DNA of 59,507 bases, from positions 1 through 59,507 of IMG/VR virus record IMGVR_UViG_3300022690_002018; one strand, written 5' to 3'. The DNA comes from a virus. Lineage: Duplodnaviria; Caudoviricetes. Numbering within the stretch: position 1 is the first letter of the stretch; each line of letters starts with the position of its first letter. Shown here one piece after another: positions 3,155 to 51,141 of the stretch. The notes under the pieces are model-generated. The model did not search any database, was not told where the DNA came from, and saw only the letters and a program-made list of their open reading frames with translations. Made by a program: the position numbers and the translations under genes.

Positions 3155-3166
3155 TTAATATTCTCC

Positions 3167-24991: not shown

Positions 24992-24993
24992 CT

Positions 24994-28822: not shown

Positions 28823-28827
28823 TCAAG

Positions 28828-30071: not shown

Positions 30072-30104
30072 GCCTACATTGTCAAAAACATTAAGGAAAA
30101 CCAA

Positions 30105-30512: not shown

Positions 30513-30513
30513 C

Positions 30514-32858: not shown

Positions 32859-33467
32859 CTATAATACATATTCAAAAATCAAAACAACGTTGGCCGGACT
32901 AAATTTCCTAAACAAACATTCAATTAATGTTTTTGGCCCAGACGCAAAACACAAAGGAAAAGGAATCGGGAACAGGCAATCGTTAATAATTGTAGGCAAT
33001 TGTATAATCATTGTAAAGCGAGCAAAGGGAGTTCTAGTACAAAAAGGCAGAGGAAAGGGTAAAGGAAAAGTGATACATTCCGGTAAATGCTTTATGACTA
33101 CCTGAACTCCCAACAACAACCCTAAATCAATGTAATCCTGTTCAGTAAGCAGGGCGATTCCTAATTTTATAATGACGTTTCGTCGGCGTTCTTCTAAAGG
33201 CTCCTTCCCCGTAAAGCAATCGTCTGGGATACCTACCATACTTTCCCATTCCGAAATTAAATCCGTCGTGTTTCGAATGTCGTGTTGTCTTGACAACTCT
33301 TTAATCGAGCTTTCATCGCGTACAAATTCACTGGCTAATCCCAGCAATAACTTTTTTAATGTCGTTTTCTCAATATTCTTTGCCTCAAAAATAGGACCAT
33401 TCGGCAAGTAATCCGAAATACTTTTAGAATGTTCTTTTTGAGTATGGCATGTAAAGTCATTGCGCAT
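32859..33467 (-). CDS. Baseplate protein YmfQ/DUF2313 (Mu gp48-like)
   Basis: YLPNG, LISEWESMVGIPDDC, LEERRRNV, IECLFRKFSPAN. Confidence 0.9.
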   Translation of the reverse strand: MRNDFTCHTQKEHSKSISDYLPNGPIFEAKNIEKTTLKKLLLGLASEFVRDESSIKELSRQHDIRNTTDLISEWESMVGIPDDCFTGKEPLEERRRNVIIKLGIALLTEQDYIDLGLLLGVQVVIKHLPECITFPLPFPLPFCTRTPFARFTMIIQLPTIINDCLFPIPFPLCFASGPKTLIECLFRKFSPANVVLIFEYVL

Positions 33468-33479
33468 ATTGATTTACTT

Positions 33480-34841
33480 TTATGTTAAGTTAAAAATAAC
33501 ATTACCAAGGACAGCGATTTCGTCATTGTCTACTTCAATGTCTCCGTTAGGCGTACTCAGTTCAAAATCCGTTACTTTACTTCCCGTATCGTCAAATGCC
33601 TCAAAAACAGCACATTGATATAGAAATTGACTCATGGACGAACCAATAGGGTTTTGTTCCTTAAACAATTGCACTAAATTTGCCTTAACGGCTTCTCGCA
33701 AAGAAGAAGAATCGGGTACAAACACCGTAAAAATAAAATCAATCACTTTTGATCGCAATACTGGAAATATCACATTACCACTGGCAGGATCAATTAAACC
33801 CGTAGGATCACTACCGTTTACTGTACCCGCTAAAACATGCGCTGGTTTTATTTCTAAAACAGCGGCCTTTGCTAATCGTCGATCCGTTAGTGTTGGTATA
33901 ATGGTAGGGTCGTTATCCTTCGTAAAAAACACAGTAATATCGCCAGGGAGAGGGAAAGCCTCACGAACCAGTACCCGAGTAACGCCAGCGACAGTTTTAA
34001 CTTGTTGTTCTATTTGAGCTACATTGTAAAAACTGACAGGATTCTGATATCTATCAATGATTCGATTACGTAGGTCTTCATCCGATTCTAAGTCTTCTCC
34101 ACCACTAATTGTACTAAACTGAACAAATCCTGCACTATCAACGCCCGCTATGGGTGTAGTAAGCGTTAATGACGTTCCTGATTCTTGGTTGGCAATCTGC
34201 CCAAAATCTTGTGATTCTAAGGACACCGTAATACCGGTGAATTCAGCTTTAAGACTGCCGGTTGCAGGAGTAACTGGCGTTCCAATAATCCCATAAGTAA
34301 AGGTATCTTCACCCGTAGAAATTATTGTAAACTGTCCGTTATATTCAGGTTGATCCGCTCCTGAAATAATAACGGCTAACCCCGTCGCGTATTCATGCGG
34401 TGTCTCAGTTATTACGGTTACAATTTGCCCAATTCGAGTTAAAATACTAATATCTCTATTTAAATCTTTAATCTCAACCGTACCATTGGATGTATAAAGC
34501 GTTTGATCTTGCGTTTGAAAGTCAGTCCCGTTAGGAATAACTGACCCTGGCGTGCCGCCTATGGTAATTGGTCCCTCAGCAATAGTGGCTGCTTTTCTAA
34601 ATATATTCTTATAACTACCCCACCGTTCTAAAAACTGGCCTGTAGCAGTGTCCATAAACATTTCTGTCTCAAGAACTTGAAGCTGTAAGAAAAAATCAAA
34701 AACTCGACCTGAAAGGCCAAATGCTAAAGCACCAATAAATGAATTTCTTAAAAACGGATTTGATTGGGGAAGCTGCGCCCGTATATCATTCTTTATACGG
34801 TCGGTAATTTCCTTCCTATTATCGGGTATCTCAATTGACAT
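33480..34841 (-). CDS. Baseplate J-like protein (Mu gp47-like)
   Basis: FMDTATGQFLERWG, GGEDLESDEDLRNRII, VAGVTRV. Confidence 0.93.
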   Translation of the reverse strand: MSIEIPDNRKEITDRIKNDIRAQLPQSNPFLRNSFIGALAFGLSGRVFDFFLQLQVLETEMFMDTATGQFLERWGSYKNIFRKAATIAEGPITIGGTPGSVIPNGTDFQTQDQTLYTSNGTVEIKDLNRDISILTRIGQIVTVITETPHEYATGLAVIISGADQPEYNGQFTIISTGEDTFTYGIIGTPVTPATGSLKAEFTGITVSLESQDFGQIANQESGTSLTLTTPIAGVDSAGFVQFSTISGGEDLESDEDLRNRIIDRYQNPVSFYNVAQIEQQVKTVAGVTRVLVREAFPLPGDITVFFTKDNDPTIIPTLTDRRLAKAAVLEIKPAHVLAGTVNGSDPTGLIDPASGNVIFPVLRSKVIDFIFTVFVPDSSSLREAVKANLVQLFKEQNPIGSSMSQFLYQCAVFEAFDDTGSKVTDFELSTPNGDIEVDNDEIAVLGNVIFNLT

Positions 34842-35394
34842 TTTCCAACACCCCCGTATTATTCCAAATTTTAAATAAACGACTGTCTACGCGATCATTA
34901 AAGCGAAACAGTATAATATTCAGCAATAGCGCCCCATTTTCTTTCGACCCTACGACTTCAACGGATTTTAATAAATTGTCTTCAACCATCCATTCCAAGG
35001 CTTGATTGGTATAGTCCACTGCGGCGTTTACTTCCGTCTGTGTCAATCGCGCTTGAAACAGCAACCACAACTTCGACCCGATTTCAAAATTACCTATCTC
35101 ATTGGCTTCATTGCCAATCCAGCCGCGCCGTCTTTCAGGAACAACTTGCTCAGAAGCCGAGGCCCGTCGTTCACAAAATAACGTCATCTTTAGGGCCGTG
35201 TCAAAACTGGATTCGTGCGCAATATCCCCATTCTCATCAATATCGATATCAAACAGTTCTTGTTGACCAACTATCTCAGAAGATGAAACAAAACAAAGCG
35301 GAAATTTAATAGGAAATTTACAGCTTTTAAATACATTACGTAAACGCTTTGTTACTGTAATGTCTATAGCGCTTTCTGATTCTTCTAAGTGCAT
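34831..35394 (-). CDS. Mu gp46-like baseplate protein
   Basis: LFCERRA, RRGWIG, GSKLWLL, ALEWMVED. Confidence 0.9.
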   Translation of the reverse strand: MHLEESESAIDITVTKRLRNVFKSCKFPIKFPLCFVSSSEIVGQQELFDIDIDENGDIAHESSFDTALKMTLFCERRASASEQVVPERRRGWIGNEANEIGNFEIGSKLWLLFQARLTQTEVNAAVDYTNQALEWMVEDNLLKSVEVVGSKENGALLLNIILFRFNDRVDSRLFKIWNNTGVLENVN

Positions 35395-35405
35395 TTTTTC
35401 CTCGA

Positions 35406-35984
35406 TTATAAAGGGGGTCCGCTGTTAACAGCCCCCGCTGTAACACCACTGTGAACATGCGTTTTCAACGAAATAGTCCCCGTCACCACATCATCACTCG
35501 CCGTTAAAGTACCTGTAATATTAACATCTCCATCGATATTAATCGTGGTCGCTTTAATCTCTACATTCGTTGCACTTTCAATGCTAACGTCTTCCGCCGA
35601 TTTTATAATAACGCCTTTCGTGGAAGTAACAATGATATTCCCTTCCGCATCAAATTTAACCGAGCTTTTTGTCAAGAGATTCCCTATCTCAATTTCTCCT
35701 GGCTTTAGTCCCTTGGCTCGATCTTGTGGAAGATAAAAAATAGCCGTTCGATTCTCCTCGTCCCCCAGGACAGTCCACATAAGACCCGTTGAGTTTATGG
35801 GTGGGTTATAGCTGATTCCATAGATTGAAACGACCTCAACATTGGCTATTTTTCCAAAATACTGTACCTGTACAACTTGGTAATTGTGCCTATCCTCTGC
35901 CGATTTTGTCACCGCGCAACGACGAACCAGATTGGTTATTTTGTTGGAAAGATTACTAATTAAAGCGTAAATATGTGACGACAT
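35406..35984 (-). CDS. Baseplate spike (Mu gp45-like)
   Basis: YGISYNPP, LKPGE, C-terminal ISLKTHVHSGV. Confidence 0.9.
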   Translation of the reverse strand: MSSHIYALISNLSNKITNLVRRCAVTKSAEDRHNYQVVQVQYFGKIANVEVVSIYGISYNPPINSTGLMWTVLGDEENRTAIFYLPQDRAKGLKPGEIEIGNLLTKSSVKFDAEGNIIVTSTKGVIIKSAEDVSIESATNVEIKATTINIDGDVNITGTLTASDDVVTGTISLKTHVHSGVTAGAVNSGPPL

Positions 35985-37153
35985 TATAAATCCCCACTGC
36001 CAGAAAGATTACTGTTGGCTGTTCCCATATTATTAGCTTGCTGTTTCAACTTGTTCACTTCCAATAACGCGGTATATACATCTTGAGGAACTAAGGTTAA
36101 CGTCGTGGTGGAACCGGCCCCCAACGTAAAATTATAAACAATTTCTGAAACAATCAAATCCGCATTAATGGCCGCGAACTCATCGCGTACTTTGACCAAT
36201 TGACCTCGTTCCCAAATCACACCACTACTGCTCACAAAGCCTTGAACCACGGGGGAGTATTTAGTCGTTCGAGCGATCCGTAACGCATTCTCCCATTTGG
36301 CCATTTTGGTCGCAATATCAACCGTCAGGGAATTGCCTGGAACAATAGAAAACTTTCGCGTCTTACGAATCTTATCGTCCACAAGACCCTGACCGGCTTG
36401 ATTGAATAAAGCTCCTACCTCATCTTTACCACACACATCAAGAGAAGGTTCGCCAATATTTAGTTCTGCGCAAGACTGTGACAAATTACTTTGCGAGGTC
36501 ACATCGTAAAGATTAAAGCGATGGCTATTATCATACGTAACACTCCCACTAATCACATTATTACTTTCAGGAAGGGCGCGTAAGTTAAGAATTTCCCCAT
36601 TACGAGAAGGGTTTTCAACACGAGTGAGTAGGATATTCCCATTCCCGTCATTGCTTATTAAGACTTGGCGTTCTTCAGCGTATTTATTAATAAAAGCAAA
36701 CCCCGATTCAGCGTGCTTTAAAGCCGCGATGTCATTAGATTTAAAACCTTCAATCCCACTAGTAGCATCAATAATTTTAATGTCTGTAATGCCCAAAAAA
36801 TCAAGAACTTTCTGTATCACCTCTTTAAGCTCAAATGGCCCCACCAATTCAATATCTTTAAGATGTGAATCTAGGATATCTTCCGTTTTATCCCGTCCCG
36901 CAATCCGAATCGTATGGCTTTTACTGGAATAATTAACTCGAATCGAATCGACGAAACCGTTAGCAACAGGGAGGGTGATAGTCCCATTTCTGATAAGCAC
37001 TTCCACTTTATCGCCCGCAGAAAAAGGGAAATCATTATTATTACTACTGGTTGCTTCAAATTCAAATTTACCAGAAATGGCTTGCAGGCTATTTGAAACT
37101 CGAATAGTGGTAAAGTTTTCAAAGTTTTGACCGTTTAATCTCAGCAGCAACAT
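35984..37153 (-). CDS. Baseplate hub (Mu GpP/gp44-like)
   Basis: IAGRDKTEDILD, VVQGF...WERGQLVKVRDE. Confidence 0.9.
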   Translation of the reverse strand: MLLLRLNGQNFENFTTIRVSNSLQAISGKFEFEATSSNNNDFPFSAGDKVEVLIRNGTITLPVANGFVDSIRVNYSSKSHTIRIAGRDKTEDILDSHLKDIELVGPFELKEVIQKVLDFLGITDIKIIDATSGIEGFKSNDIAALKHAESGFAFINKYAEERQVLISNDGNGNILLTRVENPSRNGEILNLRALPESNNVISGSVTYDNSHRFNLYDVTSQSNLSQSCAELNIGEPSLDVCGKDEVGALFNQAGQGLVDDKIRKTRKFSIVPGNSLTVDIATKMAKWENALRIARTTKYSPVVQGFVSSSGVIWERGQLVKVRDEFAAINADLIVSEIVYNFTLGAGSTTTLTLVPQDVYTALLEVNKLKQQANNMGTANSNLSGSGDL

Positions 37154-37158
37154 ACCCG

Positions 37159-38343
37159 TTATCTCGTTAAAATACTAAAATCACCATCAATAAACGATGG
37201 GTTGAACACCATATTAAGAGCCAATAGCTCATTCTCTAAATCTGTATCTCCATAATTATTAAAAGCAATTAATGCTACGGGTTGAGTTTGAACATTCACC
37301 GTATCAATACGAAACAAATTTACCGATTGTTCATTGAAAATAGAATTCACCGTATTACGCAAATCTTCCAGTTTATCAAGACTAACATTCGTCCCTCGAT
37401 TGCTATTTACTACATCATTAAACGCAGTATCTAATTGCTCTTGAACCTCCAATAAATCATCTTCCAAGGTAAAATCAATCAAAGACGCTTGGTTATAAGC
37501 TGCGCTCAAAGACATAGTGCGCATAAAATCCACATTGGCTTTTCGATTGTTTTGCCGTTGTTGGTTTGAAGGAGTATCACTGTCTAAATCAATACCAGTA
37601 CGATTGAAATCAAAACCAGAAGATAGAAAGTCAAATGCACTCTGAGGATTATCAAATAAATTTTGAATCTGATTAAATAAATCCTCTGAGCTGTCCGTAA
37701 ATCCCGTAGGATTCCTAACAAAGTTAACGACATTGGCTTCAAACTGTTTTAACGATTCTTCAAACTCATCCGTATTAGCCGATTGTCCTTTGGCCGATAA
37801 TGTACTGTTAAAGAAATCCCCTGTATTAAGATACTGATTAATCGCATCTTGAAAGTTCCCAAAGATATCCTTTGGTGTCTGAAATTCCCCAACGAAATCA
37901 TCTTTAACAGAACCGTTTACATCGCTTGAGTTTTGTTCTGCCAGGGCATTAGAAACAAAGGTTTCGGGTAAAGGCTGAGACTGTGCAACGGCTTCTTGAA
38001 ACGTTAAATCAAGAACGGCCATTCCGGTCTTTTGCAAATCTTCATTAATGGAATAGGGTAACGGCGTAACCGTTACGCGACCGTATAAAGGGTGCAATAA
38101 GATACCTTGCCCTGGCCGTTCCAGTTCCTGTAATAGGTTTTCTCGCTTAATTAAGTAATCGTCGCCTGTAATAATGGCTTTGATTTTAAAAATTCGATTA
38201 TCCAGTCCTAAATCTTCCACAAAACGTCTATCGGATCGAACAAACTCATGACTCACCACCTTACGACCACCCGTAGTCGTCCCCTTCTTCATTAAAAAAG
38301 GAATGTTTTGATAACTGGCGGCATGTAAATCATCAGGTAACAC
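37159..38343 (-). CDS. Mu GpN-like DNA circularization / tail protein
   Basis: ASYQNIPF, GGRKVVSHEF, FVEDLG, GILLHPLYG. Confidence 0.92.
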   Translation of the reverse strand: MLPDDLHAASYQNIPFLMKKGTTTGGRKVVSHEFVRSDRRFVEDLGLDNRIFKIKAIITGDDYLIKRENLLQELERPGQGILLHPLYGRVTVTPLPYSINEDLQKTGMAVLDLTFQEAVAQSQPLPETFVSNALAEQNSSDVNGSVKDDFVGEFQTPKDIFGNFQDAINQYLNTGDFFNSTLSAKGQSANTDEFEESLKQFEANVVNFVRNPTGFTDSSEDLFNQIQNLFDNPQSAFDFLSSGFDFNRTGIDLDSDTPSNQQRQNNRKANVDFMRTMSLSAAYNQASLIDFTLEDDLLEVQEQLDTAFNDVVNSNRGTNVSLDKLEDLRNTVNSIFNEQSVNLFRIDTVNVQTQPVALIAFNNYGDTDLENELLALNMVFNPSFIDGDFSILTR

Positions 38344-40070
38344 TACACCGCTCCATGGGCCGCTAAAGGCATCGTTGTTCCAACATCAACATTCGGTGAA
38401 CTGCTACTATGGGTCATCCGATCAATTTGAAGATCACTTTTACTGGTAATACCGATATTGATATTGGCTTCTAACCCTTCACTTAATGCGGGGAAGGCTG
38501 CGGATAATGCCGCTGTCAATGCGTCTACGCCCCCTCCAGGGGAAGTTAATGGAACTGTCCCCATGGGCATAACTGGACCCAATAATTTAGTTGTTGCTAA
38601 TCCAGTTGGCCCTAGCATTTTTGTAGCCAATCCAGTTGGCCCTAGCATTTTTGTAGTCAGCGTTCCCGTTGCATCAAGTGCACCAAAGGCAGGGAACATC
38701 TTTTTCAACCCCTCCCCAATGCTGTTAAAAAATTTCTTAATAGCGTTGCCCTTTGACAGCAACCAATCAAACGATTTAACAATCCATTGCATAGACGCTT
38801 TAATTATCTTAGTAAGCAACGGAAAGTGTTCCTGTGCTGCAGCACTCATTGCATGGAATACCTGTTTTGCTTTATTGGACAACCACGTAAACGCCCCCGC
38901 ACCTTTTAGCCATTGAAAAAGTTTTTTAAACCCCCACGCCAATAAAACAACAGCCCCAACAATTAATATAATAGCTAATAACAAGGGAGCCATAGCAAGT
39001 TCAGTTAAAATGATAGTACCCCTAAACAGAGCAACAATTATTTTTAAAGAAATTAAAGTAATGCGTAATGCAATAGCTGCTTTTCTTAAGAACCACATTG
39101 TACTGGCAGCTATTTTTATTATATTCCCTACAAAACGGATAGCAGTTCCTAATATAAAGGTAGTGACCATCATGGCTAGAAAGCCTGCAATAGCGAAGCC
39201 AATGACTTTAATTAGGGTTCCGTATTTTTCAATATAAGAATCAAAGTTTTTTTCAATCTTCATCACAATATCACGAAATTTAAAAGCAGCATGTGTTAAA
39301 TGAATTTGTTTTGCAACATATTCCCCAGTGACTGCGCTTAAAACTTGAAGGGAATCCCTTACCATCCTAAAAGAACCGGCAATCGAGTGAGCACCTTGTT
39401 CCTGCATCTTAAAGAATGTTCCCCCCTTCGAAGTCATTATAATAATAGCTTTTCTATAGGTTTTGAAATGCACCTGCCCTGCTGCAATCGCCTTCATAGT
39501 TTCTGCTGTTGTTTTCTTTAAAATGCCTCCAAGAACTGAAATGATAGGAGTTGTTTTCATCAACCCTCTCATAAAGATTCTTTGAACTTTATCCCCAGCA
39601 AATATCGCCGCATAATTTCTAGCTAAGGCTTCTACTGTTAGGGACGTACCCGACGTAATATCGGTCAGTCGACTTAACACCCCAGGGATTTGTTCTGCTT
39701 GGCCCTTAACTGCAAGAAAAGACCCCGCTGCCCTTCCTAATTCTAATGTAGTCGCCGCCCCAAATCGTTGAGACAAAGCGGTCAAACTCTTAAACAGTTC
39801 CTCCGCTTTCTTCTTATTTCCGATCATAGTCCGAAAACCAATATTCATAGTTTGAAATTGCGCTGCTGTATGAAATAGTGCTGCACCCAACCCAACAACT
39901 GGCAATGCTACTTTTCTAAAAATTCCACGACTAATACTTTGAAATTTCTCTGCTGTTTCAGATAATTTTTCAAATTTCTTAGTAACTTCAGCGGTTGATT
40001 TAGCAATATTGCGAGCCGTTTGACTGAATTTATCAATTGCTTGGATTATAAATGTTACATCAAAAGCCAT
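38343..40070 (-). CDS. Tape measure protein
   Basis: IQAIDKFS start, helical and hydrophobic body, position after the chaperone; TKMLGPTGLA repeats near the C-terminus. Confidence 0.88.
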   Translation of the reverse strand: MAFDVTFIIQAIDKFSQTARNIAKSTAEVTKKFEKLSETAEKFQSISRGIFRKVALPVVGLGAALFHTAAQFQTMNIGFRTMIGNKKKAEELFKSLTALSQRFGAATTLELGRAAGSFLAVKGQAEQIPGVLSRLTDITSGTSLTVEALARNYAAIFAGDKVQRIFMRGLMKTTPIISVLGGILKKTTAETMKAIAAGQVHFKTYRKAIIIMTSKGGTFFKMQEQGAHSIAGSFRMVRDSLQVLSAVTGEYVAKQIHLTHAAFKFRDIVMKIEKNFDSYIEKYGTLIKVIGFAIAGFLAMMVTTFILGTAIRFVGNIIKIAASTMWFLRKAAIALRITLISLKIIVALFRGTIILTELAMAPLLLAIILIVGAVVLLAWGFKKLFQWLKGAGAFTWLSNKAKQVFHAMSAAAQEHFPLLTKIIKASMQWIVKSFDWLLSKGNAIKKFFNSIGEGLKKMFPAFGALDATGTLTTKMLGPTGLATKMLGPTGLATTKLLGPVMPMGTVPLTSPGGGVDALTAALSAAFPALSEGLEANINIGITSKSDLQIDRMTHSSSSPNVDVGTTMPLAAHGAV

Positions 40071-40071
40071 A

Positions 40072-40260
40072 TCACACCTTCATCGCCCGTTGTATTTCGG
40101 CTTCAAATTTATTAGCAAAGGAAATATGTTGCTTTATCTGTGATAAGGACATATTTTGCAAAGTATGATAATCCAACGCACCCTTATAATAGACCATCAG
40201 TCGCGCTATTTGTTCATCTAGCGCGTCGAAAGTTTCTTGAGAACAGAAGTCATCAAAAAA
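40072..40260 (-). CDS. -1 frameshift extension of the tail assembly chaperone
   Basis: Slippery TTTTTTG at 40254-40260 opens ...DDFCSQETFDALDEQIARLMVYYKG...AMKV*, ending just before the tape measure gene. Confidence 0.75.
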   Translation of the reverse strand, partial: FFDDFCSQETFDALDEQIARLMVYYKGALDYHTLQNMSLSQIKQHISFANKFEAEIQRAMKV

Positions 40261-40736
40261 GTTTCACAATACACCCCCATAAAGACCTCTAAGTCTTCAA
40301 TTGAGAGGTTATCGTAATGGGTTGAAGTCAACGCAACACTTCCATCAATCTTTACCAATTCTGAATACCCTGAACCACAAATTAATTCTTTAAATTCTTC
40401 CTGGAATTCGTAAAAGTCCTCGTCACTCGTATAAAGCATTAACATAATTTCTGCACTGGTTATCTTAAGAGGTGCATCTTCCTGCCCATCTTCCTGCCCA
40501 TCTTCTGCCTTTTCTTTAGACTTACTCACTGCTGCTAATCCAGGATTGGTAGCTATTAAAGACTTTCCCATATTCATATAAGCCTTCATTAATACTTGAA
40601 CAAAATGAAGTGTTAATTTCTTCTGTTTAACTGTAGGTCTCGAACACACTAAACGGGTACTTTCTTGTGCAACGTCTTCTTTATCTTTGTACTTTATAGG
40701 ACGATTTAACGTAATCTCTACCGTATCTTGATACAT
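40218..40736 (-). CDS. Tail assembly chaperone
   Basis: EITLNRPIKY; between tube and tape measure genes; slippery site at the 3' end. Confidence 0.8.
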   Translation of the reverse strand: MYQDTVEITLNRPIKYKDKEDVAQESTRLVCSRPTVKQKKLTLHFVQVLMKAYMNMGKSLIATNPGLAAVSKSKEKAEDGQEDGQEDAPLKITSAEIMLMLYTSDEDFYEFQEEFKELICGSGYSELVKIDGSVALTSTHYDNLSIEDLEVFMGVYCETFLMTSVLKKLSTR

Positions 40737-41125
40737 TATGCCGCTGCTCTCCCGTGGAATTCTAACGAAATAGAACCCTCATTTTTAAGATTCACTTCAT
40801 AATTATTAGTCAATGCCATTTGGGCAAAGTTACGGTGTAACTCACTCCCAGGGCCGCCTGTGATTTCAATACGGTTACCATCTCGACTGGTTTTCCAAAT
40901 ACGCGCATTTTCAATATTTTTATCCGTATTATAAACATCAAATTTAACCATACTGAACTTAGTTTCCGCATTATCAAAAAAGACATTTTCCACAGAAGAC
41001 CCGCCAGCAGACTGCGTTTTAACAGATTGCTCGCCAATGCCTTCGTCGTACGAGAGTGAATTGGGAATGATAGCGACTGCTAACCCATTCACTTCAACCT
41101 GGGGATTTGCTAAACCAGTACCCAT
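40736..41125 (-). CDS. Tail tube protein
   Basis: 129 aa directly after the sheaths; ends EGSISLEFHG. Confidence 0.8.
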   Translation of the reverse strand: MGTGLANPQVEVNGLAVAIIPNSLSYDEGIGEQSVKTQSAGGSSVENVFFDNAETKFSMVKFDVYNTDKNIENARIWKTSRDGNRIEITGGPGSELHRNFAQMALTNNYEVNLKNEGSISLEFHGRAAA

Positions 41126-41137: not shown

Positions 41138-42769
41138 TTATCCATTGGTAGAAAACGTAAGTTCAAGTGTGCCAACAATTTCTCGAAGCTGAGTAACGAT
41201 AGGAATCAATGCAAAAATAATCACTTTTCCAGCTTCTAAATCTAATGTGACTGTAAGATTGTCTTTAAAAAACTTGGTTGCCCTTTCGCCCAATTGGGTA
41301 AGAACAAACTCAGGGCCAGCTAAATCCCGATATAACCCTCCTATAAACGCCTTGATAGAAGATACATTGGCTTGATTTCGATTTGACACTAAATCACCTT
41401 CTGTCAATCGAGACTGGGCATATCGAGATTTTAAATTATTGAAAAAATATTCCCGAACATTTGACATGGTATCGACGGCATTTAAAAAGAAAAAGGATTT
41501 ATCCGGTTTTCCATTTGTATTCGTTTTATAAAGCGTTACCGCATCTAACGATACTATTTTAGTATCAGCATCGTTATTTTCTAACATACTTAGCCCAACT
41601 TCTTGTAATTCTCTAATTTGTTTATTTTCAAAACCTGCATCTTCTCTAATCACAGGGAGGAGATCAAACGGGGTATTGAAATATGGAAGACTGGCTAATG
41701 CGGGACCGCCAAAATTGTCCAGTGCTCCACTAGTAGAAGTAACAAACTGTGATATATCTGCTCCTTCAGTTAATCGCAATCCTCGAATCGCCCCTATTTG
41801 AGAAGCAATCACATAATCTAATTCAACCAATGCAGACCCTTCTTGCGGTAAAATCCCGGTAGGACCTAATGTCTCCGCATTGGCATAAAGCGATATCACT
41901 CGTGTATCTAAAGATTCACCTTGTATTTTTTGATCTCCGAAACTTTGAGTAAATGAAATAATGGCTTGCCCGTCTCGTATTTCATTATCCGAATTGAAAC
42001 GAGTTTCTAAATCTTCAATCAAGGGTCTCCAACTATCTGCCGGGGTTCCAGTATCCTCATCATACGTTTGAGGCCAAACAATGGTCTGATATCGTTGACG
42101 TGCGATATCTTGAAATATACTCGTAAGATCGGGATTGGCAGTTGTTCCAGCAAAGCCAACAATCTCAACAGTAATTCCAAGAGGAATCTTTATAGTTTGG
42201 ATAGTAATATGTCTTGCCTCATTACCAGTATTAGCACCATTTAGCTCAATTACCCCTAAGCCTATATCGGTAGCAATAATGGGAACCGTTAAATCCGCAT
42301 TGATAAGATTAGGTAAGTTAGCGCCAAAAAAAGAAGCACCAGTAGAGCCTTTGGGCACTGGTAAAGTAAACGTATGGTTCCTTTTTGACCCAATTGCAAC
42401 AATAAATTCTCCATCTTCCGTAGAAGTCCCTAAAAAATTCAGCTCTGCATCTAACGCATCTCCTGCTGCATCCGGCAACACAAACGCATCAAAACGGGTA
42501 ACAGGGTTTACTAATCGAGCTTCCCGTAGCATAGCTGTAATAATAGAACGAGGACCATATAGAATACTATTTCCCTTTTCATCATCGGGAACGTTATTAA
42601 CAAGTTTTCCAGCCGTTGCAGGGTCAAACGTTCCAGCAGGATTACCGCTACCTACCGTTCCACCGTTCTTTATCATTTGTCCTACAAATAATATTTTTTG
42701 AGGTGTATTAGATACTCGCGTTCTCGCAGGGATAATATCTAGATTTATTTTAGGAGAACTAAATGTCAT
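41138..42769 (-). CDS. Tail sheath protein, paralog A (Mu GpL-like)
   Basis: QKILFVGQM, YGPRS, VTLYKTN..G.PD, VDTMSNVREY. Confidence 0.9.
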   Translation of the reverse strand: MTFSSPKINLDIIPARTRVSNTPQKILFVGQMIKNGGTVGSGNPAGTFDPATAGKLVNNVPDDEKGNSILYGPRSIITAMLREARLVNPVTRFDAFVLPDAAGDALDAELNFLGTSTEDGEFIVAIGSKRNHTFTLPVPKGSTGASFFGANLPNLINADLTVPIIATDIGLGVIELNGANTGNEARHITIQTIKIPLGITVEIVGFAGTTANPDLTSIFQDIARQRYQTIVWPQTYDEDTGTPADSWRPLIEDLETRFNSDNEIRDGQAIISFTQSFGDQKIQGESLDTRVISLYANAETLGPTGILPQEGSALVELDYVIASQIGAIRGLRLTEGADISQFVTSTSGALDNFGGPALASLPYFNTPFDLLPVIREDAGFENKQIRELQEVGLSMLENNDADTKIVSLDAVTLYKTNTNGKPDKSFFFLNAVDTMSNVREYFFNNLKSRYAQSRLTEGDLVSNRNQANVSSIKAFIGGLYRDLAGPEFVLTQLGERATKFFKDNLTVTLDLEAGKVIIFALIPIVTQLREIVGTLELTFSTNG

Positions 42770-42831
42770 TTTTTTAAACCATCTATTCTAATTTAAAGAT
42801 TAACTAAACCAATACTCATAATGTAATCCCC

Positions 42832-44460
42832 TTATCCATCGATAGCAAACGTAAGTTGTAATTCGCCAACAATTTCACGAAGCTGAGTAACAATAAGAAC
42901 CAAAGCAAAAATAGTCACTTTTCCAGCTTCTAAATCTAATGTGACTGTAAGATTGTCTTTAAAAAACTTGGTTGCCCTTTCGCCCAGTTGAGTAAGGACA
43001 AATTCAGAACCGGCTAAATCCTGATATAGACCACCCATGAACGCTTTAATAGAGGGTTCGTTGGCTTGATTACGACCTGTTGCTAAATCACCTTCTGTTA
43101 ATCGAGACTGAGCATATCTAGATTTTAAATTATTGAAAAAATATTCCCGAACATTTGACATGGTATCGACGGCATTTAAAAATAAAAATGATTTATCGGG
43201 ATTGCCAGTCGCATTTGTTTTGTAAAGTGTGAGTGCATCTAAAGATACTATTTTAGTTTCAGTATCATTATTTTCCAGTATACTTAGCCCAACTGCTTGT
43301 AAGTCTTTAATCTCAATATCTATAAATCCTTCATCTTCTCTAATCACAGGAAGAAGATCAAAAGGCGTATTAAAATAAGGAAGACTCGCTGATGCAGGGC
43401 CGCCAAAATTGTCCAGTGCCCCATTAGAAGCGTTAACAAATCTTGAAATATCCGCTCCTTCGGTTAAGCGCAATGCTCGAATCGCCCCAATCTGGGAAGC
43501 AATGACATAATCTAATTCAACCAATGCAGACCCTTCTTGGGGCAACAAGCCGCTAGGACTCTGAGTCACTGCATTAGCATAAAGTGATAACACTCTGGTA
43601 TCTAAAACTTCAGCTTGTGTTAGTTGCGCCCCAGCAGGTCTGGTAAATGAAATTATCCCTTGCCCATCGCGTATCCCATCATCCGAATTAAAACGCTTTT
43701 CTAAATCCCTAATCAACGGAATCCAACTGTTTTCCACTGTTACCAAATCTTCATCATAGGTTTGAGGCCAAACAATCGTCTGATATCGTTGACGTTCAAT
43801 GGCCGGAAATACAAATCCAAGAACAGGGTCACCCGTTGTGCCGGAAAAGAAATTAATTAAAACGTTAATCCCAGGGGGAATTTTTATGGTTTGAATCGTA
43901 ACATGCCCTGTTTCAAAACCCGTATTAGCTCCCTCTAACTGAATTACCCCGGGGCCACTACTTATAGCCTTGAGTGGAACCGTTAAATCTGCATTGATAA
44001 GAGAGGGTAAATTATCAGTAAAAAACCCATCACCAGAACCCTCGGGTACTGCTAAAGTGAAGGTATGATTCCTTTTTGATCCAAGGGCAACAATAAATTC
44101 TCCATCTTCTGTAGAGGTTCCTGTAAACGTTATGTCTGCGAATAAAACACCTCCCCCTGCATCTGGCAACACAAAAGCATCAAAACGAGTAATAGGATTC
44201 ACTTTACGACCTTCACGTAGCATCGCCGCAATAATTGAACGCGGGCCATATAGAATATTATTTGCTTTTTCATCATCAGGCACATTGGCAACAAGTTTCC
44301 CCTCCGTCCCAGGATCAAACGTTCCAGCAGGATTGCCACTGCTTATAGTTCCGCTGAACTTTATCATTTGACCTACAAACAGTATTTTTTGAGGCGTATT
44401 AGAGACTCGCGTTCCCCCAGGAACAATATTAAGACTTATTTTAGGAGAGGTAAACGTCAT
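42832..44460 (-). CDS. Tail sheath protein, paralog B
   Basis: Same motifs; full length (542 aa). Confidence 0.9.
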   Translation of the reverse strand: MTFTSPKISLNIVPGGTRVSNTPQKILFVGQMIKFSGTISSGNPAGTFDPGTEGKLVANVPDDEKANNILYGPRSIIAAMLREGRKVNPITRFDAFVLPDAGGGVLFADITFTGTSTEDGEFIVALGSKRNHTFTLAVPEGSGDGFFTDNLPSLINADLTVPLKAISSGPGVIQLEGANTGFETGHVTIQTIKIPPGINVLINFFSGTTGDPVLGFVFPAIERQRYQTIVWPQTYDEDLVTVENSWIPLIRDLEKRFNSDDGIRDGQGIISFTRPAGAQLTQAEVLDTRVLSLYANAVTQSPSGLLPQEGSALVELDYVIASQIGAIRALRLTEGADISRFVNASNGALDNFGGPASASLPYFNTPFDLLPVIREDEGFIDIEIKDLQAVGLSILENNDTETKIVSLDALTLYKTNATGNPDKSFLFLNAVDTMSNVREYFFNNLKSRYAQSRLTEGDLATGRNQANEPSIKAFMGGLYQDLAGSEFVLTQLGERATKFFKDNLTVTLDLEAGKVTIFALVLIVTQLREIVGELQLTFAIDG

Positions 44461-44475
44461 TTTTTAAATCCTATG

Positions 44476-46116
44476 TTAACCATTAACTGAAAATGAAAGT
44501 TGTAATTCGCCAACAATTTCTCGAAGCTGAGTAACGATAGGAATCAATGCAAAAATAATCACTTTTCCAGCTTCTAAATCCAGGGTTACTTCTAAGTTGT
44601 CTTTAAAAAACTTGGTTGCATTTTCGCCCAATTGAGTAAGGACAAATTCAGAACCGGCTAAATCCTGATATAGACCGCTCATGAACGCTTTAATAGAGCG
44701 TTCATTGGCTTGATTTCTATCACGAATTAAATCACCTTCTGTCAATCGAGACTGGGCATATCGAGATTTTAAATTATTGAAAAAATATTCCCGAACATTT
44801 GACATGGTATCGACAGCATTTAAAAAGAAAAAAGATTTATCGGGATTGCCAGTCGCATTTGTTTTGTAAAGTGTTTCAGCATCTAACGATACTATTTTAG
44901 TATCAGCATCGTTATTTTCTAACATACTTAGCCCAACCGCTTGTAAGTCTTTAATCTCAATATTAGAAAAGCCATTCTCAATAATCACAGGAAGAAGATC
45001 AAAAGGCGTATTAAAATAAGGAAGACTGGCTAATGCGGGACCACCAAAATTGTCCAGTGCACCGCTGGTAGAAGTAACAAATCGTGAAATGTCAGCTCCT
45101 TCAGTTAGGCGCAATCCTCGAATTGCCCCAATCTGAGAAGCGATGACATAATTTAATTCCGCAATCGCAGAACTGATTTGTGGTAAAGGTAGACCAGGGT
45201 TAAATACAAACCTATTTGCATATATCGAAATAACCCGAGTATCCAATGCCTGCGCTTGAGCTGTATGATCCGCCACACTTAAAGTAAGGCTAATAATCCC
45301 CTGACCGTCTAAAATCACATTATCTAAATTAAATCTGGTTTCTAATTCGTCAATTAATATTTTATAACTCAATTCCTTACTAGAAAGGTTCTGGTCATAT
45401 GTTTCGGGCCATACAATTGTCTGATAGCGTTTATCGCCAATATCCGTAAAAATATTGGTTAAAGTTGGGTTAGTAGGAGTGCCTCCAGGAAGGATATTAG
45501 GTACAGCGGTAACGGCTGTAATCCCTGGAGGAAGTGCAAGAATCTTAATAGTAAGATTTTCTGCTTCAAGCCCTCGATTGGCTGTTAATAAATCTATTTG
45601 TCCTGCCCCAAAATCAGTGGCCACTACAGGAACGGTTAAATCAGCATTTATTAGGGGGGGCAACCCTGCCGAAATTACAGCAACCGAATCACCTTTTAAT
45701 ATATTTAAACTAAACGTATGATTTATTTTAGAACCTATTACTAAAGTAGCCGTACCGTTTTCGGTAGCAGTTCCCGTAAAAAAAGTAACCCTATAAGAAA
45801 AATTTGAATCTACCGTACTGTCTGGCAACACAAACGCATCAATTCGAGTAACCGGATTAACTTTTCTGGCTTCACGTATCATGGCCGCGATAATGGAACG
45901 AGGACCGTATAGTGCATTATTCCCTACTTCATCATCAGGAACGTTAGTGACCAATGTTCCCAAGACCGGATCAAACGTGCCAATGGGATTATTAGTCAAA
46001 TCACTCGCATTGTTTCTAATCATTTGGCCAACCAATAAAACCTTTTGATCGGTATTCTTAATACGACTTCCCGCAGGAATAATATCAATATTTACTTTGG
46101 GAGAACTAAACGTCAC
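44476..46116 (-). CDS. Tail sheath protein, paralog C
   Basis: Same motifs; full length (546 aa); most divergent central region. Confidence 0.9.
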   Translation of the reverse strand: MTFSSPKVNIDIIPAGSRIKNTDQKVLLVGQMIRNNASDLTNNPIGTFDPVLGTLVTNVPDDEVGNNALYGPRSIIAAMIREARKVNPVTRIDAFVLPDSTVDSNFSYRVTFFTGTATENGTATLVIGSKINHTFSLNILKGDSVAVISAGLPPLINADLTVPVVATDFGAGQIDLLTANRGLEAENLTIKILALPPGITAVTAVPNILPGGTPTNPTLTNIFTDIGDKRYQTIVWPETYDQNLSSKELSYKILIDELETRFNLDNVILDGQGIISLTLSVADHTAQAQALDTRVISIYANRFVFNPGLPLPQISSAIAELNYVIASQIGAIRGLRLTEGADISRFVTSTSGALDNFGGPALASLPYFNTPFDLLPVIIENGFSNIEIKDLQAVGLSMLENNDADTKIVSLDAETLYKTNATGNPDKSFFFLNAVDTMSNVREYFFNNLKSRYAQSRLTEGDLIRDRNQANERSIKAFMSGLYQDLAGSEFVLTQLGENATKFFKDNLEVTLDLEAGKVIIFALIPIVTQLREIVGELQLSFSVNG

Positions 46117-46324
46117 TTTTCGAATCCTTTACCTTTTTTACAGATTTTTTACTATCGGATTTTTCAGGACTAATGAGTTCAACACAATGATCATGCTTGG
46201 AATCTTCAAATCGTCTACGCCAATACGAATCCAAAATATTACCATCACGACTCTTTACCCTAATAACGGAACCTTTTTTATGTCCTCGTAAATTATAATT
46301 CAATTTTAATTGTACTGTTTCCAC
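46106..46324 (-). CDS. DUF2635-like small protein (Mu gp38-like)
   Basis: YWRRRFED motif directly upstream of the sheath; GTG start after GAGG. Confidence 0.7.
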   Translation of the reverse strand: METVQLKLNYNLRGHKKGSVIRVKSRDGNILDSYWRRRFEDSKHDHCVELISPEKSDSKKSVKKVKDSKSDV

Positions 46325-46349
46325 AATATAACCTCGCGAATAGAATAAC

Positions 46350-47444
46350 TTATAATTGCTCACTATCCAAGTCAACAACCGCTGTCAATTCAGGGCTTAA
46401 ACCATCCGGTGTATCCTGTTTAATATTCAAATCTATTTCCCTAAAGGCAACACTCAACTCAGGCTCTACAATATCACAACTGTTAATATACGCCGTAATT
46501 TCAAACAAATACTGATGCACATAATACGGCCCAGTATACGCTGCTATCCCATCTTCAACAAACGACATCAAGTAAACATTTGTTTCGTTTACCTGAAATA
46601 CAAAATTAACGCCAAGAATCGATTTAAAAATTAAACGTCGAATATCTTGCGCTTCATCTCTTGCACCACGGGCAGCAATTTCATCTTTCGTCGGGAAGAA
46701 TACATATAAGGAATACTGTTCAAACATTTGTTGACGATACTCAATACCTGCTACCGGCGAATAAGTGGTATCATTATCGAACTGACGATTTTTAGTTGTT
46801 GATGTTCTCCCTGGAATGACAAAAAGCCAAAGGTCGTCAGTAAACGGTTGTTTACTATAAGCTGCTATAATGCGATCTATATCAACGCCCCCCGAAATTC
46901 TAAAATTCTTTTTTGCTGAAATAAGTCCGTGCGCGGGGCTAATGGGCGTCCCCACTAAAATATAAGTAAAAGTTGTTGTCGTCGGCACTGAAACCACTAC
47001 AAAAACTCCGTTGTACCCTCGATCTTTTCCATCGAAAACAATAATAGTCCCAGTAGCAGGTGTAACGGGCGTAGTGGCGATTTGATAAGTAAAGGTTTTT
47101 CGATTGGGAACGCTTAGTAAGTCAAATGCACCGTTATACTCCAGCTGATCGGCTCCTTCGATTTCAATTACTTTTTGAAAACCTTCTGTTAAATCATGAT
47201 TTTCAAAAGTAACGCCCGTCACAATATCGTCCACGCGCGTTAAGCTCTCAAGGGTCAATGGGGATAACGCCCCACTAATATGAACGAGATCATTTACTGC
47301 TAATCCGTGATCTACGGTCGTCGTAACGGTAGCCGTTGAGCCACTGCGCGTAATCTCCGTGACAGGAACCGTATCGCTGAACTTATCCGTTAAAATCGGA
47401 AGAACCGCAATAAGTTGATTGATAATAGTAGATACTTTAGCCAT
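46350..47444 (-). CDS. Tail completion/terminator-like protein with two inserted beta domains
   Basis: Position; YVHQYLFE...AFREIDL C-terminus; repeated HGL/YNG/TFTY modules. Confidence 0.7.
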   Translation of the reverse strand: MAKVSTIINQLIAVLPILTDKFSDTVPVTEITRSGSTATVTTTVDHGLAVNDLVHISGALSPLTLESLTRVDDIVTGVTFENHDLTEGFQKVIEIEGADQLEYNGAFDLLSVPNRKTFTYQIATTPVTPATGTIIVFDGKDRGYNGVFVVVSVPTTTTFTYILVGTPISPAHGLISAKKNFRISGGVDIDRIIAAYSKQPFTDDLWLFVIPGRTSTTKNRQFDNDTTYSPVAGIEYRQQMFEQYSLYVFFPTKDEIAARGARDEAQDIRRLIFKSILGVNFVFQVNETNVYLMSFVEDGIAAYTGPYYVHQYLFEITAYINSCDIVEPELSVAFREIDLNIKQDTPDGLSPELTAVVDLDSEQL

Positions 47445-49390: not shown

Positions 49391-49795
49391 TTAATCAGTT
49401 TCAGAATGCCTTAAGTGATCCGACACCACCAAAACACCTACCCGCCCAAACGTAGTTAAATCCGACGTAATGACTTCAGCACTGATAAATCTTTTTTTAC
49501 CGATATAGCCCTGGCTGTCTAATGAATTCGTCCCTACTATTTCTAAATTTGGTCCTATTAAGTCTTCTTGAGGAACTGTTCCATGAGTAGCTGCTACCTC
49601 ACTGTCCCCATGGCGGATAATCAATGCGTGATCCCCATCCGTCGAATCGTCTGCAGTGAAGATATAAACTTCTACTGACTGAGAACCCGCTGTGTCAAAC
49701 GAAATCCCACCTAAAAGACTACCATTAGAATTGATTTGAATGATATCAAAAATGAACTGTTTTTTTGTTATTGAATGTAAATCTCGTGCAGTCAT
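49391..49795 (-). CDS. Capsid decoration-like protein, paralog 5
   Basis: DTAGSQSVE, HGD, GYIGKKRFISA. Confidence 0.75.
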   Translation of the reverse strand: MTARDLHSITKKQFIFDIIQINSNGSLLGGISFDTAGSQSVEVYIFTADDSTDGDHALIIRHGDSEVAATHGTVPQEDLIGPNLEIVGTNSLDSQGYIGKKRFISAEVITSDLTTFGRVGVLVVSDHLRHSETD

Positions 49796-49807
49796 TAAAG
49801 TAGCTCC

Positions 49808-50236: not shown

Positions 50237-50265
50237 TTTTCTATTCTCCGTTTTTAACTTATAAT

Positions 50266-50694: not shown

Positions 50695-50718
50695 GGATGC
50701 ACCTTTTTTAAGTTATTT

Positions 50719-51129: not shown

Positions 51130-51141
51130 AATTAGTCCACC

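Follow-up and report, generated by a model that had tools for sequence, protein, structure and literature searches.

Three tandem tail sheath paralogs in a Mu-type contractile-tailed phage and their possible assembly into one sheath

Background

The contractile sheath of phages is generally regarded as a homopolymer; exceptions have been documented for eCIS particles, for one group of jumbo phages, and for T4-like phages of Campylobacter. In the Photorhabdus virulence cassette PlPVC1, an eCIS particle, the sheath starts with Pvc4 and continues with Pvc2 and Pvc3 in alternation, the three together forming one sheath through conserved handshakes, with an extra knob on Pvc3. Afp2, Afp3, and Afp4 are likewise described as a multi-copy sheath group, and Afp1 and Afp5 are two tube paralogs. 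The original prediction for the locus studied here cited Afp and PVC as systems with three sheath paralogs, and the published descriptions (Pvc2/3/4 and Afp2/3/4) agree.

Phages with capsids and more than one sheath protein have also been described. The Pseudomonas jumbo phage PaBG has two sheath paralogs (38% identity) that arose by gene duplication and that both appear in the virion proteome table; the primary reference for this “two-component tail sheath” is Kurochkina et al. 2018. Campylobacter phages CP220 and CPt10, members of the Eucampyvirinae, encode several Gp18 homologs, more than one of which is present in virion gel bands, as well as several tube paralogs, and the authors of the CP220 work left undecided whether sheath types mix within one virion. 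Because capsid-bearing multi-sheath phages are in print, eCIS particles are neither the only nor the closest precedent. The premise that phages normally use one sheath gene holds within the phage group considered here (0 of 77 loci, see below) but is incomplete in view of PaBG and CP220/CPt10. In the single-sheath phage Mu, the virion contains 415 copies of the MCP vs. 180 of the sheath protein, and the first and last sheath rings contact BW1 gp46 and the terminator gp37.

In this article, we analyse a phage genome from a sediment metagenome in which three sheath genes lie side by side. The window, i.e., the whole stretch of DNA that was analysed (59,507 nt), has a 144-bp repeat at its two ends, which indicates a complete 59.5-kb genome. 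The sheath belongs to the same protein family as gp39 of phage Mu (9khy) and gp20 of the Agrobacterium phage Milano (8fop), and the gene order is the same (sheath, tube, tape measure, simple baseplate). Unlike Mu and Milano, each of which has a single sheath protein, this phage has three, and unlike Mu it is not a transposable phage; in addition to the terminal repeat it encodes a replication set with a primase, a DNA polymerase, and helicases. The side-by-side arrangement of three paralogs resembles PlPVC1 and Afp, the mixed sheath being demonstrated in PVC and predicted here. In contrast to eCIS, which lack capsid and packaging genes but have two tube paralogs, the genome encodes TerL, TerS, portal, protease, and MCP, as expected of the capsid-bearing phage that was predicted, together with one tube protein. 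The paralogs are 66–77% identical and nearly equal in length, with no obvious specialised insertion such as the Pvc3 knob of PVC.

Like CP220/CPt10 and PaBG, the window is a capsid-bearing phage genome with at least two sheath homologs, more than one of which has been detected in virions of PaBG and CP220. The CP220 genome differs in being 177 kb long and T4-like, with sheath homologs of phrog_23 rather than phrog_165; its two true homologs, CPT_0034c and CPT_0053, share 27% identity and lie ~22 kb apart, each beside a mobile element, and no similarity between CPT_0052 and CPT_0053 could be detected. The two PaBG copies, in a jumbo genome, are gene products 76 and 213 and consequently not adjacent, unlike the three tandem genes here. 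The contrast is thus between dispersed genes of 27–38% identity in genomes of >170 kb and a tight tandem array of 66–77% identity in 59.5 kb. Our literature search, in which few subscription journals were covered, found no tandem triple sheath array in a Mu-type tail. We consider the array rare but not unprecedented; multi-sheath phages are known, and nothing is overturned.

Results

The array, designated S1-S2-S3, runs head to tail on the minus strand (41138–46116), and its features are collected in Table 1. The prediction of three intact sheath ORFs of 542–546 aa in a row is borne out (546, 542, and 543 aa), the GTG start of S1 being backed by N-terminal alignment with S2 and S3.

Table 1. 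Features of the sheath array and the adjoining tail module
Feature	Coordinates	Strand	Remarks
S1, first sheath paralog	44476..46116	-	546 aa, GTG start; 11-nt overlap with upstream 90-aa ORF; phrog_165 E 2.9e-34
S2, second sheath paralog	42832..44460	-	542 aa; phrog_165 E about 1.2e-30
S3, third sheath paralog	41138..42769	-	543 aa; directly upstream of tube gene; phrog_165 E 3.6e-39
S1-S2 spacer	44461..44475	-	15 nt; AGGA Shine-Dalgarno-like motif
S2-S3 spacer	42770..42831	-	62 nt; first 34 nt (42798-42831) a tube-start remnant; mini-ORF 42793-42819
S1 putative external extension domain	45475..45819	-	~residues 100-214, boundaries approximate; Milano gp20 SED mapping
S2 putative external extension domain	43834..44160	-	~residues 101-209, approximate; Milano gp20 SED mapping
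S3 putative external extension domain	42140..42469	-	~residues 101-210, approximate; Milano gp20 SED mapping
S1 C-terminal homogenised block	44476..45126	-	From ~residue 331
S2 C-terminal homogenised block	42832..43482	-	dS drop and mosaic
S3 C-terminal homogenised block	41138..41788	-	dS drop and mosaic
Predicted tail tube gene, single	40736..41125	-	129 aa; predicted-structure matches; 66-67% identical homologs behind single sheath in L072, L074
Putative tail assembly chaperone	40218..40736	-	172-aa ORF between tube and tape measure; assigned by position; homolog in L074
Tape measure protein, single	38343..40070	-	575 aa; PF20155 E 6e-9 (under curated cut-off); phrog_9959 E 2e-14
Mu-like baseplate set, single	32859..38343	-	Hub/tube-initiator, hub, 192-aa ORF, three wedge subunits; PF07157 DNA_circ_N; phrog_184, 177, 180, 6, 203
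Upstream neighbours, 90-aa and 364-aa ORFs	46106..47444	-	Conserved order in relatives L071-L075

All three paralogs match phrog_165 “tail sheath” in PHROGs, and a family profile built from 58 sequences matches the sheaths of phage Mu (9khy_a, E 6e-29) and Milano (gp20, 8fop_T, E 1e-23), so the predicted label of a Mu-GpL-like sheath is correct. Membership in the Mu gp39/gpL-type sheath family, which falls in the Pfam Phage_sheath_1 group, by profile match is accompanied by the siting of the array directly upstream of the tube gene in the tail module. A Pfam search with S1–S3 gave no match at E<=0.01; some of their relatives carry precomputed PF17481 or PF04984 annotations. Domains were placed by profile alignment to the Mu and Milano sequences, from which the expected layout would comprise an N-arm, an inner handshake domain, a body, an external domain, and a C-arm. 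The external extension domain of S1–S3 probably corresponds to the SED of Milano gp20 (residues 91–203) and to the outward-facing domain III of Mu.

The 129-aa ORF, which begins 12 nt after the S3 stop, has no sequence match in Pfam, PHROGs, or the PDB. In an Atlas search against structure clusters, its predicted structure matches PF10618 Tail_tube (TM 0.72), the PhiTE tube (0.72), and T4 gp19 (0.74), and on this modelled fold we take it to be the tail tube. The 172-aa ORF that follows has no family match in Pfam or PHROGs. An all-vs-all blastp comparison of the 94 ORFs (E<=1e-4) found no paralogs of the tube, tape measure, or baseplate genes, which agrees with the prediction of a single set of each. 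The layout is operon-like, with one strand, 15-nt and 62-nt spacers, and Shine-Dalgarno-like motifs, and there is no excess of promoter or terminator signals within the array (20 found vs. 22.1 expected and 3 vs. 6.1, respectively, i.e., at or below chance).

Logan contigs, produced by an independent assembler, bridge the upstream/S1, S1/S2, S2/S3, and S3/tube junctions with 0 differences. In particular, the S1-S2 spacer is bridged by contig record 6 (44159–44538, 0 differences) and the S2-S3 spacer by record 4 (41816–42944). The matched public runs are all DNA and come from one study; one of them, X3, contributed 18–24-nt pieces and gave no sign that the phage is present in it. At the start of the S2-S3 spacer, 28 of 34 nt match the sequence that follows the S3 stop, i.e., the ribosome-binding site and first codons of the tube gene. 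Of 118,947 windows of the genome, only 2 score this high, one in the spacer and the other at the genuine start of the tube gene. The tube-start remnant is a scar of tandem duplication.

The three copies are monophyletic in the tree of the N-terminal and middle parts (support 0.965), in the C-terminal tree (0.938), in the external-domain tree (0.788), and in a tree that includes P0122 (0.942). Since S1–S3 form one clade, the duplications are two and lineage-specific; two successive tandem duplications turned one Mu-type sheath gene into a three-gene array. In the N-terminal and middle tree, S2 is sister to S3 (support 1.0), with S1 branching outside this pair.

Arrays of several sheath genes are not a regular feature of this phage group. 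A second full-length sheath copy is present in 0 of 5 whole related records and in 0 of 77 related external loci, a count made without the genomic context of the nearer relatives P0004–P0012 (47–61% identity; P0004 61%, P0005 55%). Among the 117 non-window matches listed, no two share the same longest-contig value, as read from the table, which is indirect evidence on the gene contexts of P0004–P0012. In loci L071–L075, the order is a homolog of the 364-aa ORF, a homolog of the 90-aa ORF, and one sheath gene, followed in L072 by the tube gene. Because such relatives function with one sheath, the extra copies are not needed by the design of the tail. A tblastn search of 50,697 phage records returned only 2 distant Mu-like matches (24.6%), a scan of GTDB genomes gave 5 distant loci (27–38%), and a metagenome scan gave 5 short contigs (44–52%).

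Amino acid identity between the copies is 66% for S1-S2, 69% for S1-S3, and 77% for S2-S3, and the corresponding nucleotide identities are 71, 71, and 80%. The differences are distributed unevenly along the protein. The predicted divergence of residues 100–330 is confirmed (41–71% amino acid identity), and the most diverged part is the putative external extension domain (41–68%), where S1 is 41–46% identical to S2 and S3, and S2 is 68% identical to S3. Thus the region that varies most among the copies would be a domain that is external in solved homologs, as supported by the mapping to the Milano gp20 SED. The N-arm, which varies throughout the family (entropy 1.85 bits), is 48–65% identical between S1 and S2/S3 vs. 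74% between S2 and S3. In the tube-contact helix region (aligned to Mu residues 72–86), only 1–2 of 18 positions differ between copies. The C-terminal part has 78–88% amino acid identity and 82–97% nucleotide identity in 30-codon windows, with 85–88% in the handshake part; the copies are alike here as predicted, but “nearly identical” was an overstatement.

The external domain of S1 has no detectable donor, since a search of 1.84 billion representatives gave a best match of 52%. The protein that gives this match, P0122, was considered as an S1-type ortholog and ruled out: it groups with P0004 outside the S1–S3 clade. Weak matches of the S1 external domain to LysM-repeat, filamin-repeat, and Ig proteins were also recorded.

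All three copies are held by purifying selection. Pairwise dN/dS, for which a domain-by-domain check had been proposed, is 0.14–0.26 for all regions and all pairs, although dS is 0.75–2.3. Of 96 family-conserved columns (>=90% conserved in 55 relatives), each copy keeps 90–92, with 5, 4, and 6 departures, and S1, S2, and S3 are about equally far from outgroups.

The C-terminal ~215 residues, comprising the inner handshake domain and the adjoining body, have been homogenised by gene conversion. In this block, dS drops to 0.41–0.53 from 1.2–2.3 upstream, the informative sites form a mosaic (54 runs vs. 89.0 +/- 5.4 expected, a result reached in 0 of 20,000 shuffles), and the tree pairs S1 with S2 (support 0.873), in conflict with the N-terminal and middle tree. 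The Logan contigs break within the homogenised blocks. The similarity of the C-terminal parts had implicitly been ascribed to functional constraint; constraint does operate, but the dS drop and the mosaic runs indicate that gene conversion acts as well.

Discussion

The most likely reading of the array, and one to which we give about even chances as the best overall account of the duplications, the retained copies, the gene-converted core, and the diverged surface, is that the three proteins co-polymerise in one sheath. Two tandem duplications produced the co-oriented array of three Mu-type sheath genes, and purifying selection has since kept all copies intact. The inner, assembly-critical part, made up of the region of the tube-contact helix together with the body and handshake domain at the C-terminus, is kept alike by constraint, and also by repeated gene conversion over the last ~215 codons. 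The external extension domain, by homology mapping, and the body segment next to it have drifted far apart. In the model that we favour, the three sheath genes would share a transcript with the tube gene and all three proteins would be produced; with interchangeable handshake arms and tube-binding parts, they would co-polymerise around the single tube. The predicted outcome is a single contractile sheath whose outer surface is heterogeneous, with the subunits mixed either at random or in ordered layers. By analogy, PlPVC1, PaBG, and CP220 may serve as precedents for mixed sheaths.

Points against co-assembly are that relatives build their tail with one sheath protein, that the paralogs are equal in length and have no obvious Pvc3-like knob, and that contig depth is lower over parts of the array (see below). 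Selection statistics cannot separate co-assembly from alternative use or redundancy.

Incorporation of several sheath proteins in this phage remains a prediction from genes. If it is correct, a Mu-type tail with three closely related subunits of equal length would offer the most accessible natural setting in which to ask how much subunit heterogeneity a sheath lattice tolerates and which parts of the subunit have to remain interchangeable. The abrupt change at ~residue 330, from a gene-converted core to an outer part free to diverge, already points to an answer. Because this split marks the external domain as a swappable module, it also offers a hint for engineering the surfaces of tailocin and eCIS delivery particles.

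Among the alternatives to a mixed sheath, redundancy of the duplicates fares best, and we consider it unlikely rather than negligible. Here any one copy would build the tail, and the array would persist through weak selection, e.g., for dosage, or through conversion and recombination that regenerate it. Relatives need one copy only, contig depth hints at possible copy-number heterogeneity, and the genome is duplication-prone, as shown by further tandem paralog sets (five phrog_5707 copies and several pairs). However, pure redundancy normally leads to loss of copies, and the duplications are old, as the dS values indicate, yet the low dN/dS and the family-conserved residues have been kept. Selection for dosage, on the other hand, would favour identical copies rather than 41–46% identity in one domain, and a single MCP gene suffices for a protein that, by the Mu copy numbers, is more abundant than the sheath.

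It is quite unlikely, in our judgement, that the subunits are specialised by position as in PVC, with one paralog, for which S1 is the candidate, forming either the ring that sits on the baseplate or the one that ends the sheath below the terminator, while the trunk would consist of the others. Of the three, S1 diverges most in the N-arm and begins with a GTG codon that is coupled to the ORF before it, PlPVC1 has a dedicated initiator in Pvc4 next to the alternating Pvc2 and Pvc3, and the first and last rings of Mu make different contacts. Against this stand the variability of the N-arm across the whole family, the strong homogenisation of the C-terminal handshake domain and C-arm, where special contacts would be seated, and the ability of related phages to start and end the sheath with a single protein. 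A second tube paralog, as in the Afp1/5 pair, is also absent.

A related extension of the mixed-sheath proposal, which we offer as an improbable speculation, is an ordered three-component lattice that would hold the external domains at defined positions, e.g., for docking or adhesion, in combination with a capsid decorated by the phrog_5707 family, whose five copies lie nearby, and with gene conversion keeping the core interchangeable while the surface modules diverge. If true, patterned virion surfaces built from sets of paralogs would be a strategy undescribed for simple Mu-type tails.

Alternative tails, in which each virion or infection would mainly use one paralog and the phage would mix sheath surfaces as a form of bet-hedging, appear very unlikely. 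The authors of the CP220 work raised this option and the external domains differ strongly, but the three genes lie on one strand with short spacers and no promoter or terminator signal between them, and no switch was found: a scan of the 20 larger ORFs gave no match to a recombinase, invertase, or reverse transcriptase. In addition, the near-identical assembly interfaces would make it hard to exclude the other paralogs from a growing sheath.

Mis-assembly, in which an assembler would have chained the sheath genes of related strains and which had been named among the observations that would undo the prediction, is almost certainly not the explanation. The record was assembled from a metagenome, the phage occurs in a single run that probably represents the sample it came from, and no long read reaches across the array. 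Even so, the sheath-end/sheath-start junctions are error-free in a second assembly and would be absent from single-copy genomes, the copies are 71–80% identical in nucleotides with a longest exact repeat of 87 nt and no common 99-mer, and the tube-start remnant is the mark of an evolutionary event rather than the product of an assembler. The depth of the Logan contigs, which is unreliable as a measure of copy number, is 23–28 over S2- and S3-specific segments vs. 43–70 over the flanks; part of the population could carry fewer copies.

Sheath array and tail module

The virus record is 59,507 bp long and complete (IMG/VR class direct terminal repeats, CheckV completeness estimate 100%), and we computed an exact 144-bp repeat at its two ends. 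The three tandem tail-sheath paralogs that it carries, S1, S2 and S3, are separated by spacers of 15 nt (S1-S2) and 62 nt (S2-S3), and a 129-aa ORF starts 12 nt past S3. Amino acid identities are 66% for S1-S2, 69% for S1-S3 and 77% for S2-S3, with nucleotide identities of 71%, 71% and 80%, respectively. A Pfam search of the three proteins gave no match at E<=0.01; all three match phrog_165 'tail sheath' in PHROGs (E 1e-31 to 4e-39), and a 58-member family profile matches the solved sheaths of phage Mu (9khy_a, E 6e-29; described as a Mu structure in PMC11915804) and phage Milano (8fop_T, E 1e-23). The same module contains a tube gene recognised at fold level only (TM 0.72-0.74 to tail-tube clusters), one tape measure gene and a Mu-like baseplate (phrog_184, 177, 180, 6, 203), all of them single-copy, i.e., without a paralog among the 94 ORFs (blastp E<=1e-4). 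The ORFs, the PHROGs matches and this lack of paralogs bear out the original prediction of three intact tandem sheath genes accompanied by one tube, one tape measure and one baseplate.

Upstream of the array are head-tail connector genes, followed by the MCP, protease, portal and both terminase subunits, while the other genome arm encodes a primase, DNA polymerase, helicase, exonuclease, SSB and three tRNAs, the latter located between the replication and tail modules. With capsid and replication genes of its own, the element is a phage, neither an eCIS (a tail-only particle of the Afp/PVC type) nor a transposable Mu. A conserved 364-aa ORF upstream of the sheaths has a 67-residue stretch (phrog_9998, 49% identity) in common with the baseplate wedge protein, and also matches tail-fibre and virion-structural proteins weakly.

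Positions of features in the virus record
Feature	Positions	Strand	Remarks
S1	44476-46116	-	ORF, 546 aa, GTG start
S2	42832-44460	-	ORF, 542 aa
S3	41138-42769	-	ORF, 543 aa
S1 residues 95-220	45457-45834		external domain region
Tube/S3 junction			Logan record 1, 0 differences
S2/S3 junction	41816-42944		extent of Logan record 4, 0 differences
S1/S2 junction	44159-44538		extent of Logan record 6, 0 differences
S1/upstream junction			Logan record 8, 0 differences
364-aa ORF	46350-47444
Baseplate wedge protein	33480-34841		phrog_6
Five-paralog array	49391-51570	-	phrog_5707, 134-142 aa
tRNA genes Asp-GTC, Glu-TTC, Met-CAT	27219-27290, 28751-28901	-
290-aa ORF	8401-9273		phrog_6287 'BstA abortive infection system, replication inhibitor', E 1e-52; phage-borne defence-type gene
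Adjacent paralog pair	2873-3451		32% identity
Adjacent paralog pair	24746-25236		48% identity
Adjacent paralog pair	30039-30915		39% identity
Dispersed paralog pair	7618-8331 / 10283-11029		48% identity, phrog_98

Authenticity and origin of the array

A single public run, probably the source sample, contains 92% of the region's sampled words. The Logan contigs of that one run, produced by a different assembler from that of the record, bridge 4 of the 4 junctions with zero differences, one by one and in a single sample, the whole array being contained in no one read or contig. Breaks between these contigs are confined to the conserved C-terminal blocks. Exact matches between any two copies reach at most 87 nt, with no 99-mer in common, so ordinary reads resolve S1, S2 and S3. 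The S2-S3 spacer opens with a degraded copy of the sequence downstream of S3, namely the ribosome-binding site and first seven codons of the tube gene. The match to the tube start is 28/34 nt, and only two of 118,947 genome windows score as high, one being the spacer and the other the genuine tube start. Judged from its sequence, this remnant is a scar left by a tandem duplication in which the duplicated unit extended to just past the start of the tube gene. Given the error-free bridging by another assembler's contigs and a scar that an assembler would not make, it is extremely improbable that the array is an assembly artefact.

Logan depth is 69.7 over the 5' part of S1 and upstream, 53.5 at the S1/S2 junction, 23 in the middle of S2, 27.8 over the S2/S3 junction and the 5' part of S3, and 43.4 on the tube side, i.e., 23-28 over S2- and S3-specific segments compared to 43-70 in the flanks, where contig depth is not a copy-number measure. 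Such uneven depths would fit a population with variable sheath copy number.

Trees of 58 family members were built separately for the N-terminal/middle, C-terminal and external-domain parts. S1, S2 and S3 form one clade in all three (support 0.965, 0.938 and 0.788, respectively); in the first, S2+S3 has support 1.0 and the nearest outside protein, the sheath relative P0004 (61% identity), is sister to the clade (0.887). This monophyly places both duplications within this phage lineage. The copy-number survey took in 77 external loci, 1.3-21.5 kb long (67 from IMG/VR, 5 from metagenomes, 5 from MAGs), with closer relatives at 49-61% left out, and a second full-length sheath was found in 0 of the 77. 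One sheath match occurs in 75; the remaining two are one gene in two pieces (L065) and one 628-aa gene (L023). A single sheath match was likewise obtained in each of five related whole records (completeness at least 92% for four of these), and locus L072 (47% identity) shows the full order of 364-aa gene, 90-aa gene, single sheath and tube. One 14,260-bp IMG/VR contig has the same sheath locus at both ends in opposite orientation with identical statistics (L019/L020), which is probably a fold-back assembly artefact of that record and not a second copy.

Divergence by domain

Milano gp20 is described as three parts: residues 1-23 and 381-503 form the inner handshake domain, residues 24-90 and 204-380 the body domain and residues 91-203 the external extension domain (PMC10811340). 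In Mu gp39 the tube is contacted by an inner-wall-domain helix (residues 72-86), and rings are joined to each other through a handshake of the N- and C-arms; domain III, which faces outward, is described as the part whose structure diverges among myophages and CISs (PMC11915804). Our mapping of these domains is by homology only and approximate; over Milano residues 26-225 the alignment to the family profile is nearly one to one.

Pairwise identity of the sheath copies by domain (approximate boundaries)
Segment	S1-S2	S1-S3	S2-S3
N-arm	48%	65%	74%
First body segment (includes tube-contact helix region)	70%	71%	83%
External domain	41%	46%	68%
Middle body	54%	59%	71%
Last body segment	85%	87%	78%
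C-terminal handshake part	88%	87%	85%

Among the 18 residues aligned to the Mu tube-contact helix, 1-2 positions differ between copies. The best match to the S1 external domain among 1.84 billion representatives is at 52%, with none closer; it was ruled out as an S1-type sheath because it groups outside the S1-S3 clade. Over S1 residues 95-220 the same domain gives weak multi-stretch matches (E 1e-7 to 2e-5) to a 10x LysM-repeat protein as well as to filamin-repeat proteins and Ig-domain proteins; these matches may be compositional.

The 628-aa sheath of L023 (positions 7998-9884 of that locus) has an internally duplicated external beta-sandwich domain of ~100 residues, and PF17481, the Pfam 'sheath beta-sandwich domain', is present on P0124, a protein like that of L023. 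The module duplicated there is the same one that diverges among S1-S3, which makes the external domain the evolvable module of the sheath family.

Selection and gene conversion

Up to approximately codon 330, dS is 1.2-2.3 between S1 and the other copies and 0.75-0.83 between S2 and S3, which implies that the copies are old. Pairwise dN/dS is 0.14-0.26 in all regions. Of the 96 family columns with conservation of 90% or more in 55 relatives, only 4-6 are altered in any one copy, and the distances of the three to outgroups are about equal. By these measures none of the copies is decaying.

From approximately codon 331 to the end, dS is 0.41-0.53 for all pairs. The 133 informative sites of this C-terminal block fall into long alternating runs that unite S1+S2, S1+S3 or S2+S3, with 54 runs, a number reached by 0 of 20,000 shuffles (89.0 +/- 5.4 runs after shuffling), the longest comprising 11 sites (P = 0.0014). 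Such clustering is lacking in the first 320 codons (207 runs vs 220.3 +/- 8.2, P = 0.06). The C-terminal tree pairs S1 with S2 (0.873), as opposed to S2 with S3 elsewhere. The drop in dS, the mosaic runs and the conflict between trees together indicate that the C-terminal likeness arises from repeated short-tract gene conversion in addition to constraint.

A possible mixed sheath and its precedents

S1, S2 and S3 are three intact, selected, co-oriented genes with an interchangeable core and a divergent outer domain. Short spacers, SD-like motifs before each start, and no excess in the region of promoter-like sites (20 vs 22.1 expected) or terminator-like sites (3 vs 6.1 expected) suggest that the genes are co-transcribed. 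All three proteins would then polymerise around the single tube into a sheath with a mixed outer surface, the most likely reading, to which we give about an even chance. The original prediction of a mixed sheath is plausible, and its novelty was overstated; it did not mention two precedents among phages. In PaBG, two sheath proteins of 38% identity, attributed to duplication, both appear in the table of virion proteins (PMC7412058). Multiple homologs of Gp18 and of Gp19 occur in CP220/CPt10, with CPT_0034, CPT_0052 and CPT_0053 among the virion bands, and the authors leave open whether sheath types mix within one virion (PMC2853527). In the CP220 record, CPT_0034c and CPT_0053 (both phrog_23, 27% identical) lie ~22 kb apart, each adjoining mobile elements, and we detected no similarity between CPT_0052 and CPT_0053.

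Redundancy of the three copies is the alternative that fares best, although we consider it unlikely. Somewhat less probable is a division of labour by layer as in PlPVC1, where Pvc4 starts the sheath on the baseplate, layers of Pvc2 and Pvc3 alternate, and a knob present on Pvc3 only is thought to dock fibres (PMC12546770). Afp likewise has multi-copy groups, Afp2/3/4 and Afp1/5 (PMC6899500). The phage resembles these eCIS in having three sheath paralogs and differs from them in two respects, the presence of capsid and packaging genes and the single tube. Alternative homopolymeric tails, each built mainly from one of the three proteins, are improbable.

A full-text literature search of incomplete coverage found no tandem sheath triple in a Mu-type tail. 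As a variant among multi-sheath phages, this small phage with a simple baseplate has an old, closely spaced tandem triple that selection maintains, in which a gene-converted core is paired with a diverging surface domain.

Other paralog sets

A second tandem array, flanked by the MCP gene on one side and the head-tail adaptor on the other, consists of five paralogs that are 25-45% identical and have no Pfam or PDB match. The Atlas provides a weak lead, PF21190 Bbp16, on 10-16% of members of neighbouring clusters; we take Bbp16 to be a capsid cement protein. In 26 related loci that include both the MCP and the adaptor, tblastn found 0 copies in 11, 1 in 12 and 2 in 3 (two of these three being the same contig), and the five-copy state also seems special to this phage. 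With three adjacent paralog pairs and one dispersed pair elsewhere, the genome seems prone to retaining duplications.
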